Sequence record: NC_001417.2 | Strand: one strand, 5' to 3' | Source: Escherichia phage MS2 | DNA length: 3,569 bases | In this document: piece by piece, positions 25 to 3,398 of the stretch | How positions within the stretch are numbered: the stretch's first letter is position 1 | Layout of the letters: every line of letters begins with the position of its first letter | Position numbers and translations under genes: made by a program | Notes under the pieces: model-generated | Databases searched by the model: none | What the model saw: the letters and a program-made list of their open reading frames with translations, nothing else | What the model was told of the DNA's origin: nothing

Positions 25-115
25 GCTCAACTTCCTGTCGAGCTAATGCCATTTTTAATGTCTTTAGCGAGACGCTACCATGGCTATCGCTGTAGGTAGC
101 CGGAATTCCATTCCT

Positions 116-122
116 AGGAGGT
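116..122 (+). promoter_or_regulatory. Shine-Dalgarno sequence of the maturation gene (AGGAGGU)
   Basis: AGGAGGU at 116-122, 7 nt upstream of the GUG start at 130-132. Confidence 0.85.
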
Positions 123-129
123 TTGACCT

Positions 130-1311
130 GTGCGAGCTTTTAGTACCCTTGATAGGGAGAACGAGACCTTCGTCCCCTCCGTTCGCGTTTACGCGGACGG
201 TGAGACTGAAGATAACTCATTCTCTTTAAAATATCGTTCGAACTGGACTCCCGGTCGTTTTAACTCGACTGGGGCCAAAACGAAACAGTGGCACTACCCC
301 TCTCCGTATTCACGGGGGGCGTTAAGTGTCACATCGATAGATCAAGGTGCCTACAAGCGAAGTGGGTCATCGTGGGGTCGCCCGTACGAGGAGAAAGCCG
401 GTTTCGGCTTCTCCCTCGACGCACGCTCCTGCTACAGCCTCTTCCCTGTAAGCCAAAACTTGACTTACATCGAAGTGCCGCAGAACGTTGCGAACCGGGC
501 GTCGACCGAAGTCCTGCAAAAGGTCACCCAGGGTAATTTTAACCTTGGTGTTGCTTTAGCAGAGGCCAGGTCGACAGCCTCACAACTCGCGACGCAAACC
601 ATTGCGCTCGTGAAGGCGTACACTGCCGCTCGTCGCGGTAATTGGCGCCAGGCGCTCCGCTACCTTGCCCTAAACGAAGATCGAAAGTTTCGATCAAAAC
701 ACGTGGCCGGCAGGTGGTTGGAGTTGCAGTTCGGTTGGTTACCACTAATGAGTGATATCCAGGGTGCATATGAGATGCTTACGAAGGTTCACCTTCAAGA
801 GTTTCTTCCTATGAGAGCCGTACGTCAGGTCGGTACTAACATCAAGTTAGATGGCCGTCTGTCGTATCCAGCTGCAAACTTCCAGACAACGTGCAACATA
901 TCGCGACGTATCGTGATATGGTTTTACATAAACGATGCACGTTTGGCATGGTTGTCGTCTCTAGGTATCTTGAACCCACTAGGTATAGTGTGGGAAAAGG
1001 TGCCTTTCTCATTCGTTGTCGACTGGCTCCTACCTGTAGGTAACATGCTCGAGGGCCTTACGGCCCCCGTGGGATGCTCCTACATGTCAGGAACAGTTAC
1101 TGACGTAATAACGGGTGAGTCCATCATAAGCGTTGACGCTCCCTACGGGTGGACTGTGGAGAGACAGGGCACTGCTAAGGCCCAAATCTCAGCCATGCAT
1201 CGAGGGGTACAATCCGTATGGCCAACAACTGGCGCGTACGTAAAGTCTCCTTTCTCGATGGTCCATACCTTAGATGCGTTAGCATTAATCAGGCAACGGC
1301 TCTCTAGATAG
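130..1311 (+). CDS. mat: Maturation (A / assembly) protein; binds genomic RNA and the F-pilus
   Basis: 393-aa ORF starting with GUG (MRAFSTLDRENETFVPS...) preceded by a strong SD. UAG stop at 1309-1311. Translation recognised as MS2 A protein. First gene in the canonical levivirus order. Confidence 0.96.
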   Translation: MRAFSTLDRENETFVPSVRVYADGETEDNSFSLKYRSNWTPGRFNSTGAKTKQWHYPSPYSRGALSVTSIDQGAYKRSGSSWGRPYEEKAGFGFSLDARSCYSLFPVSQNLTYIEVPQNVANRASTEVLQKVTQGNFNLGVALAEARSTASQLATQTIALVKAYTAARRGNWRQALRYLALNEDRKFRSKHVAGRWLELQFGWLPLMSDIQGAYEMLTKVHLQEFLPMRAVRQVGTNIKLDGRLSYPAANFQTTCNISRRIVIWFYINDARLAWLSSLGILNPLGIVWEKVPFSFVVDWLLPVGNMLEGLTAPVGCSYMSGTVTDVITGESIISVDAPYGWTVERQGTAKAQISAMHRGVQSVWPTTGAYVKSPFSMVHTLDALALIRQRLSR

Positions 1312-1727: not shown

Positions 1728-1905
1728 TAGACGCCGGCCATTCAAACATGAGGATTACCCATGTCGAAGACAACAAAGAAGTTCAACTCTTTATGTATTG
1801 ATCTTCCTCGCGATCTTTCTCTCGAAATTTACCAATCAATTGCTTCTGTCGCTACTGGAAGCGGTGATCCGCACAGTGACGACTTTACAGCAATTGCTTA
1901 CTTAA
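1678..1905 (+). CDS. lys: Lysis protein L (single-gene lysis protein)
   Basis: 75-aa ORF in a different frame from both coat and replicase, overlapping the coat 3' end (1678-1727) and the replicase 5' end (1761-1905). Basic N-terminal half (RRRPFKHEDYPCRRQQR) followed by a hydrophobic segment (LYVLIFLAIFLSKF...LLLSLLEAVI) containing Leu-Ser dipeptides. Translation recognised as MS2 L. Confidence 0.93.
   Translation: METRFPQQSQQTPASTNRRRPFKHEDYPCRRQQRSSTLYVLIFLAIFLSKFTNQLLLSLLEAVIRTVTTLQQLLT
1738..1744 (+). promoter_or_regulatory. 3' arm of the 'Min Jou' long-range interaction
   Basis: CCAUUCA at 1738-1744, perfect complement of 1427-1433, immediately 5' of the operator hairpin. Confidence 0.85.
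1746..1764 (+). promoter_or_regulatory. Translational operator (TR) hairpin: coat-protein binding site, replicase RBS and packaging signal
   Basis: ACAUGAGGAUUACCCAUGU read directly. Lower stem 1746-1750 with 1760-1764, bulged A at 1751, upper stem GG 1752-1753 with CC 1758-1759, loop AUUA 1754-1757. Contains the replicase SD (GAGGA) and AUG (1761-1763). This is the textbook MS2 operator. Confidence 0.96.
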
Positions 1906-3398
1906 GGGACGAATTGCTCACAAAGCATCCGACCTTAGGTTCTGGTAATGACGAGGCGACCCGTCGTACCTTAGCTATCGCTAAGCTACGGGAGGCGAAT
2001 GGTGATCGCGGTCAGATAAATAGAGAAGGTTTCTTACATGACAAATCCTTGTCATGGGATCCGGATGTTTTACAAACCAGCATCCGTAGCCTTATTGGCA
2101 ACCTCCTCTCTGGCTACCGATCGTCGTTGTTTGGGCAATGCACGTTCTCCAACGGTGCTCCTATGGGGCACAAGTTGCAGGATGCAGCGCCTTACAAGAA
2201 GTTCGCTGAACAAGCAACCGTTACCCCCCGCGCTCTGAGAGCGGCTCTATTGGTCCGAGACCAATGTGCGCCGTGGATCAGACACGCGGTCCGCTATAAC
2301 GAGTCATATGAATTTAGGCTCGTTGTAGGGAACGGAGTGTTTACAGTTCCGAAGAATAATAAAATAGATCGGGCTGCCTGTAAGGAGCCTGATATGAATA
2401 TGTACCTCCAGAAAGGGGTCGGTGCTTTCATCAGACGCCGGCTCAAATCCGTTGGTATAGACCTGAATGATCAATCGATCAACCAGCGTCTGGCTCAGCA
2501 GGGCAGCGTAGATGGTTCGCTTGCGACGATAGACTTATCGTCTGCATCCGATTCCATCTCCGATCGCCTGGTGTGGAGTTTTCTCCCACCAGAGCTATAT
2601 TCATATCTCGATCGTATCCGCTCACACTACGGAATCGTAGATGGCGAGACGATACGATGGGAACTATTTTCCACAATGGGAAATGGGTTCACATTTGAGC
2701 TAGAGTCCATGATATTCTGGGCAATAGTCAAAGCGACCCAAATCCATTTTGGTAACGCCGGAACCATAGGCATCTACGGGGACGATATTATATGTCCCAG
2801 TGAGATTGCACCCCGTGTGCTAGAGGCACTTGCCTACTACGGTTTTAAACCGAATCTTCGTAAAACGTTCGTGTCCGGGCTCTTTCGCGAGAGCTGCGGC
2901 GCGCACTTTTACCGTGGTGTCGATGTCAAACCGTTTTACATCAAGAAACCTGTTGACAATCTCTTCGCCCTGATGCTGATATTAAATCGGCTACGGGGTT
3001 GGGGAGTTGTCGGAGGTATGTCAGATCCACGCCTCTATAAGGTGTGGGTACGGCTCTCCTCCCAGGTGCCTTCGATGTTCTTCGGTGGGACGGACCTCGC
3101 TGCCGACTACTACGTAGTCAGCCCGCCTACGGCAGTCTCGGTATACACCAAGACTCCGTACGGGCGGCTGCTCGCGGATACCCGTACCTCGGGTTTCCGT
3201 CTTGCTCGTATCGCTCGAGAACGCAAGTTCTTCAGCGAAAAGCACGACAGTGGTCGCTACATAGCGTGGTTCCATACTGGAGGTGAAATCACCGACAGCA
3301 TGAAGTCCGCCGGCGTGCGCGTTATACGCACTTCGGAGTGGCTAACGCCGGTTCCCACATTCCCTCAGGAGTGTGGGCCAGCGAGCTCTCCTCGGTAG
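1761..3398 (+). CDS. rep: RNA-dependent RNA polymerase (replicase beta subunit)
   Basis: 545-aa ORF MSKTTKKFNSLCIDLPRDLSLEIYQ... with the catalytic YGDD motif. AUG sits inside the operator hairpin. UAG stop at 3396-3398. Last gene in levivirus order. Confidence 0.98.
   Translation: MSKTTKKFNSLCIDLPRDLSLEIYQSIASVATGSGDPHSDDFTAIAYLRDELLTKHPTLGSGNDEATRRTLAIAKLREANGDRGQINREGFLHDKSLSWDPDVLQTSIRSLIGNLLSGYRSSLFGQCTFSNGAPMGHKLQDAAPYKKFAEQATVTPRALRAALLVRDQCAPWIRHAVRYNESYEFRLVVGNGVFTVPKNNKIDRAACKEPDMNMYLQKGVGAFIRRRLKSVGIDLNDQSINQRLAQQGSVDGSLATIDLSSASDSISDRLVWSFLPPELYSYLDRIRSHYGIVDGETIRWELFSTMGNGFTFELESMIFWAIVKATQIHFGNAGTIGIYGDDIICPSEIAPRVLEALAYYGFKPNLRKTFVSGLFRESCGAHFYRGVDVKPFYIKKPVDNLFALMLILNRLRGWGVVGGMSDPRLYKVWVRLSSQVPSMFFGGTDLAADYYVVSPPTAVSVYTKTPYGRLLADTRTSGFRLARIARERKFFSEKHDSGRYIAWFHTGGEITDSMKSAGVRVIRTSEWLTPVPTFPQECGPASSPR
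2775..2786 (+). other. Codons for the replicase catalytic YGDD motif (RdRp motif C)
   Basis: In-frame UAC GGG GAC GAU (Y-G-D-D) within ...TIGIYGDDIICPSE...; the GDD core is the hallmark of RNA-dependent RNA polymerases. Confidence 0.9.

Follow-up and report, generated by a model that had tools for sequence, protein, structure and literature searches.

The closest described system is the maturation-gene 5' UTR of the genus Emesvirus (formerly Levivirus), in which a long-distance interaction between an upstream complementary sequence (UCS) and the SD sequence was reported by Groeneveld 1995, Poot 1997 and van Meerten 2001 (reviewed in PMC4615214). The leader examined here is the same molecule, and it showed no substantive difference from the system described there. 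In that account, the equilibrated MS2 leader is a cloverleaf made of a 5' hairpin and the West, South and East arms, and chemical and enzymatic probing as well as phylogeny are consistent with this structure (PMC4615214). Synthesis of the maturation protein increases when the UCS is deleted or destabilised. When Groeneveld et al. varied the stability of the helix, they could rule out that the protein comes mainly from the equilibrated cloverleaf, and the longer the co-transcriptional delay in helix formation, the higher is the protein yield (PMC4615214). A metastable hairpin is held responsible for this delay in folding; plaques are lost upon its disruption and restored by compensatory changes or by evolution, and a role in replication has also been assigned to the same hairpin. 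Folding of the cloverleaf in vitro takes minutes (PMC4615214). Among other sources, a preprint on X-ray footprinting of MS2 contained nothing on the leader, and a paper on phage M covers 3' structures only.

Long-distance occlusion of a maturation-gene SD in folded RNA is also described for the A2 gene of Qbeta (Qubevirus), for which translation is limited to nascent chains because the SD is occluded in the folded RNA (Beekwilder et al. 1996, cited in PMC4615214). Type I toxin mRNAs such as H. pylori aapA1 share with MS2 the co-transcriptional metastable hairpins and the long-distance occlusion of an SD by a complementary sequence upstream, and the aapA1 paper itself cites MS2 (PMC6733600). 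The difference lies in the effect of the transient structure, the logic being reversed: in toxin mRNAs of the hok/sok type, translation is blocked by transient structures during synthesis, whereas the MS2 structure permits it. This comparison draws on PMC6733600 and on established knowledge. Qbeta differs from MS2 in the position of the SD partner, the SD at 46-51 being predicted to pair downstream with 462-473 (p ~0.97-1.0 at 600 nt), so that the delay in Qbeta would be expected to come from the time needed for synthesis of the partner and not from a metastable hairpin.

The window, the whole stretch of 3,569 nucleotides analysed here, is the complete genome of the RNA phage MS2, as judged from 99.5% identity to GQ153927 from end to end and 100% identity of nt 1-420 to the MS2 records GQ456168 and MK213795. 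The ORF list included the four expected genes in the order maturation, coat (1335-1727), lysis (1678-1905) and replicase (1761-3398), and Rfam model RF02359 matched the MS2 operator hairpin at 1729-1764. The gene for the maturation (A, assembly) protein is located on the plus strand at 130-1311 and encodes 393 aa from a GUG start, both by the ORF list and by the annotation of matching MS2 records. Its SD, AGGAGGU, is located at 116-122, and a spacer of 7 nt separates it from the GUG codon at 130-132. A curated alignment of the leader was published in 2015 (Zhu & Meyer 2015, PMC4615214). The leader is well studied in the literature, yet it is without a family in Rfam 15, and no model of this release matched nt 1-200, even at E <= 10.

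The earlier note had marked CUUCCU at 31-36, the SD at 116-122 and the GUG at 130, all of which are present in the sequence, and had proposed that CUUCCU pairs with the SD core AGGAGG using one wobble. The pairing was confirmed, but the position given for the core was not correct, as AGGAGG occupies 116-121 and 117-122 reads GGAGGU. The register was found to be C31-G121, U32·G120 (the sole wobble), U33-A119, C34-G118, C35-G117 and U36-A116. These are the six pairs already proposed, but folding gave a helix of 8 bp, two pairs longer, by the addition of A30-U122 and A29-U123. The UCS, AACUUCCU (29-36, plus strand), is thereby the 5' strand of the long-distance interaction in both MFE and ensemble folds, and the SD together with U123, AGGAGGUU (116-123, plus strand), is its 3' strand. 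The upstream partner, which the note had flagged as its own inference, came out of the folds exactly as 31-36, within 29-36. Folding paired the SD with 29-36; neither the MFE nor the ensemble left 116-122 single-stranded, and no different upstream partner was detected; 29-36 is the only site upstream that is able to pair with the SD. Upon comparison with published leader structures, this pairing was identified as the UCS-SD interaction described in PMC4615214. The interpretation offered in the note, that the SD is sequestered in the folded leader and that translation is restricted to nascent chains, is supported and essentially right, and what it missed is the metastable hairpin at 25-43 and the strain-specific GUG start. 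The feature was already known in detail from the mechanism published in the 1990s, to which the present analysis adds nothing new.

The MFE was −60.2 kcal/mol for nt 1-132 (z = −6.4 against dinucleotide shuffles) and −62.6 kcal/mol for nt 1-150 (z = −5.0). In a growing-chain scan, the helix entered the MFE structure once nt 120-123 had been made. In this structure, the 5'-terminal hairpin (1-28; 12 bp, loop UUUC, with G·U in three of the five bottom pairs) is followed directly by the UCS, which starts at nt 29. The hairpin was part of the MFE of the full genome and of all chains of 30-150 nt, and it carries compensatory changes in KU1. The helix between 29-36 and 116-123 then encloses three arms, all on the plus strand and all in the MFE, to form a cloverleaf 3' of the 5' hairpin, and the same cloverleaf was observed in the full-genome MFE. 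The West arm (37-73) consists of 37-39/71-73, 42-46/64-68 and an inner stem, and appeared when the chain reached 69-75 nt in the growing-chain scan. The South arm (74-100) has 11 bp with one bulge, and compensatory changes were found at four of its pairs in group II phages. The East arm (102-114) is formed by the 5 bp of GGAAU/AUUCC, of which one pair is changed from G-C to C-G in fr.

The anti-SD at the 3' end of E. coli 16S rRNA is ACCUCCU. The UCS core ACUUCCU is only one C-to-U change apart from it, so that the leader carries a near copy of the ribosome's anti-SD, and this C-to-U difference is the reason for the G·U wobble in the UCS-SD helix. The genome contains only one other 8-nt complement of the SD strand, the perfect AACCUCCU at 2100-2107 within the replicase gene, and pairing of this site with the SD was not predicted in the full-genome fold.

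Conservation of the helix was examined on eight aligned leaders, those of MS2, R17, M12, DL1, FrSaffron and fr (group I) and of KU1 and GA (group II). Among these, 90.6% of the helix cells were paired; three of the helix pairs were invariant, two showed one-sided changes via wobble and two showed two-sided changes. Pair 29/123 is changed from A-U to G-C in fr, and both 29/123 and 30/122 are changed from A-U to U-A in KU1. The variant SD of fr, AGGGAG, still pairs with the unchanged CUUCCU, the wobble being shifted from U32 to U33. The structure as a whole scored better than all 500 column shuffles and all slid registers, and the helix was recovered by RNAalifold without being supplied. Since the group I leaders are nearly invariant, most pairs are uninformative. 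By these comparisons, the helix is conserved with covariation across groups I and II, but only modestly; the independent sequences are few, and the GA record does not form the core.

In the GA record (X03869 / NC_001426), no upstream complement to the SD was detected. The first ~33 nt of this record are unlike KU1 and the group consensus and are without the GGGU...5' hairpin consensus. KU1, which belongs to the same species as GA, has both the 5' hairpin consensus and the SD complement. The leader of GA may truly be exceptional, or its 1986 sequence may contain an error. In the BZ13 strain DL20 (FJ483839), an MS2-like stretch of 78 nt at the 5' end precedes a GA-like remainder; this 5' end could be primer-derived, a chimera or a recombinant. 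On account of the MS2-like stretch, DL20 was omitted from the covariation set. In this record, the group II SD, GGAGG, would still find a pairing partner in the UCS of MS2 type. Searches for further Emesvirus leaders gave little: a protein-seeded scan of viral contigs yielded nothing beyond MS2, GA and one fragment, and a metagenome scan gave 80 loci, among which the close relatives were 5'-truncated and the others had just 25-40% protein identity. Two DNA pattern scans returned only GA or MS2 themselves and chance matches in DNA-phage contigs.

The metastable hairpin at 25-43 (plus strand) competes with the UCS, the West arm and the base of the 5' hairpin. It is formed by the pairs G25-C43, C26-G42, U27-A41, C28-G40, A30-U38 and C31-G37, with an A29/C39 mismatch and the loop UUCCU; both the UCS and the West arm's 5' strand are engaged in it, and it cannot coexist with the lowest 4 bp of the 5' hairpin. 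Its local free energy was −5.3 to −6.5 kcal/mol. At 45-47 nt, the state including this hairpin, with the 5' hairpin cut to 5-24, was the second-best structure, within 0.7 kcal/mol of the MFE (−22.5 versus −23.2 kcal/mol for the full 5' hairpin). The hairpin is a near-optimal fold of the nascent chain, and as such the model predicts that it is able to sequester the UCS there. Its equilibrium occupancy was 13-16% at 45-66 nt and fell to zero once nt 68 was made, when the West arm becomes able to form. By findpath, the trap state is separated from the cloverleaf by a barrier of ~3.9 kcal/mol, versus 3.2 for closure of the helix from an open UCS. In fr, the trap stem is composed of 3 bp, C·A and 3 bp, with the mismatch shifted and the local energy the same. 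In nascent KU1 chains, the equivalent hairpin is the MFE structure, and it remains populated up to the emergence of the SD. The kinetics were gauged by growing-chain MFE, ensemble occupancy and findpath, which are weak substitutes for a stochastic co-transcriptional simulation, and a strong trap in MS2 was not reproduced by this landscape estimate. As these crude kinetics do not reproduce it, the kinetic step of the explanation below was taken from the literature.

We consider it very probable that the UCS-SD helix silences the folded RNA, that translation takes place on nascent strands, and that the hairpin at 25-43 delays closure of the helix. Pairing of the UCS with the SD strand would close the three-arm cloverleaf, and, because the 8-bp helix includes the SD, the ribosome-binding site would be occluded in the fully folded RNA and the maturation gene would be silent. 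Such silencing would prevent ribosomes from occupying the 5' region of the template and would limit the yield to roughly one maturation protein per virion. Ribosomes would then load only on nascent plus strands, in the interval after the ribosome-binding site has been made (to ~nt 145) and before the helix closes, and the metastable hairpin would prolong this interval by temporarily engaging the UCS as well as the strand on the 5' side of the first arm. The leader is a classic example of a gene regulated by the kinetics of RNA folding: in a virus without transcriptional control, a ribosome-binding site that is open only during RNA synthesis would provide about one protein copy per genome. Of the parts of this explanation, the repression of translation by the helix, the kinetic and not equilibrium nature of expression and the role of the hairpin as a trap come from the literature. 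The present analysis established the sequences, the register, the dominance of the helix at all but one of the scales folded, the fact that fr and KU1 conserve the helix, and the place of the hairpin among the near-optimal folds of the nascent chain. Because the model makes the MS2 trap minor and low in barrier, and the KU1 equivalent is dominant, the minutes-long delay in MS2 may need something beyond the hairpin; tertiary or protein-assisted effects, or a second lock between 124-134 and the downstream coding sequence (364-369 or 819-831), could be considered, although we regard such an addition as rather unlikely.

The explanation that survives next best is breathing at equilibrium, according to which the helix forms at once and ribosomes catch the SD during its transient opening, with neither a delay nor a hairpin being needed. 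The energies leave some room for it, as closure of the helix is worth just −8.3 kcal/mol in the model versus ~ −11.4 kcal/mol for the duplex between the SD and the 16S 3' end, and the computed MS2 trap is weak in both occupancy and barrier. The published experiments, however, speak against it: in the helix-stability series, the equilibrated cloverleaf was ruled out as the principal origin of the protein, the yield increases with the co-transcriptional delay, mutants without the hairpin are plaque-negative and are rescued by compensatory changes, and folding of the cloverleaf in vitro takes minutes (PMC4615214). Breathing as the source of the maturation protein is therefore considered very improbable, and kinetic control through the UCS-SD helix is retained.

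A second alternative is that the main partner of the SD is another site, such as the downstream AACUUCC at 877-883, as in other RNA phages, and that the upstream match is incidental. The five core pairs of the UCS-SD helix showed probabilities of at least 0.99 at chain lengths of 123-150 nt and of 0.84-0.97 at 200-600 nt, and the helix dominated the thermodynamic folds at all scales tested with the single exception of the 1000-nt fold. In that fold, 117-123 paired with 877-883 with a probability of 0.74, and downstream partners are also predicted for the SD of Qbeta and of PP7 (462-473 and 200-219, respectively). Pairing with 29-36 was, however, restored in both the MFE and the partition function of the whole genome (p 0.97 for the five core pairs), as it was present in the folds of 123-600 nt; the site at 877 lacks conservation in fr, KU1 and GA, whereas the upstream helix covaries; and deletions of the UCS derepress the gene (PMC4615214). 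The candidate at 877-883 was rejected, since the full-length fold does not contain this pairing and the three related phages lack the site, and we give a main partner other than the UCS hardly any credence. The AACUUCC at 877-883 lies in the maturation gene (codons N-F-Q) and repeats the UCS heptamer 29-35, probably by chance.

The strength of the UCS-SD complementarity itself was evaluated by use of shuffled leaders. Of the dinucleotide-shuffled 115-nt leaders, 41% contained six nucleotides complementary to AGGAGG with no more than one wobble, and the 6-mer match by itself is not significant; an 8-bp match was present in 2.7% of the shuffled leaders. For occlusion, nt 1-115 were shuffled 400 times with 116-145 kept. 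The mean pairing probability of the SD core in these leaders was 0.81, and in 8% of the 400 shuffles the core was paired at native strength or more strongly, so that the predicted occlusion of the SD by itself is unexceptional. Since shuffled leaders still pair the SD, a purine-rich SD behind a structured leader is often occluded in silico. Because of the 6-mer matches in 41% of the shuffles and the native-strength occlusion in 8%, the computational evidence alone is not compelling. The correct partner of the SD was recovered from the sequence alone, and complementarity and thermodynamic folding by themselves were not statistically convincing. On sequence alone the feature is barely more than chance, and the case for the UCS-SD helix stands on context, conservation and experiment. 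What lies above chance is the context, namely the sole upstream site, the z of −6.4 for the cloverleaf, the high pair probability and the compensatory changes in fr and KU1. That the complementarity arose by chance in a leader structured for replication (plus-strand 5' end and minus-strand 3' end), with no role in translation, would agree with the frequency of such matches and of predicted occlusion in shuffles, with the near-invariant group I leader and its mostly uninformative pairs, and with the replication role given to the metastable hairpin, but it is extremely improbable given that the compensatory changes in fr and KU1 sit exactly in the helix and that published mutants tie the integrity of the UCS to the yield of maturation protein (PMC4615214).

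Leaders of other Fiersviridae were also folded. As in MS2, the SD of the maturation gene was predicted to be paired in all of M, PRR1, C-1, Hgal1 and PP7. The predicted partner is local and downstream in M and PRR1, local and upstream within one hairpin in C-1 and Hgal1, and far downstream, at 200-219, in PP7. A UCS that adjoins the 5' hairpin and closes a cloverleaf was absent from the predicted structures of these five phages. Since the UCS-abutting cloverleaf was seen only in MS2, fr and KU1, this arrangement looks like an Emesvirus solution, as far as the predictions go.

The spacer and start codon of the maturation gene (124-134) were predicted to pair with the downstream coding sequence. 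At 600 nt, the predicted partner was 364-369 (p ~0.9), with a corresponding pairing in fr at 355-365. Folding of the full genome favoured 819-831 (p ~0.6) over 364-369 (0.14). Downstream pairing of the ribosome-binding region 110-145 is likewise mentioned as a possibility in PMC4615214. Within the South arm, an AUG at 80, ahead of which no SD was seen, opens a mechanical ORF of 49 aa (80-229) that overlaps both the leader and the beginning of the maturation gene. The start codon of the maturation gene itself varies within the species: it is GUG in MS2 and fr, and AUG is found at the same position in R17, M12, DL1, FrHenna, FrSaffron and isolate K20.
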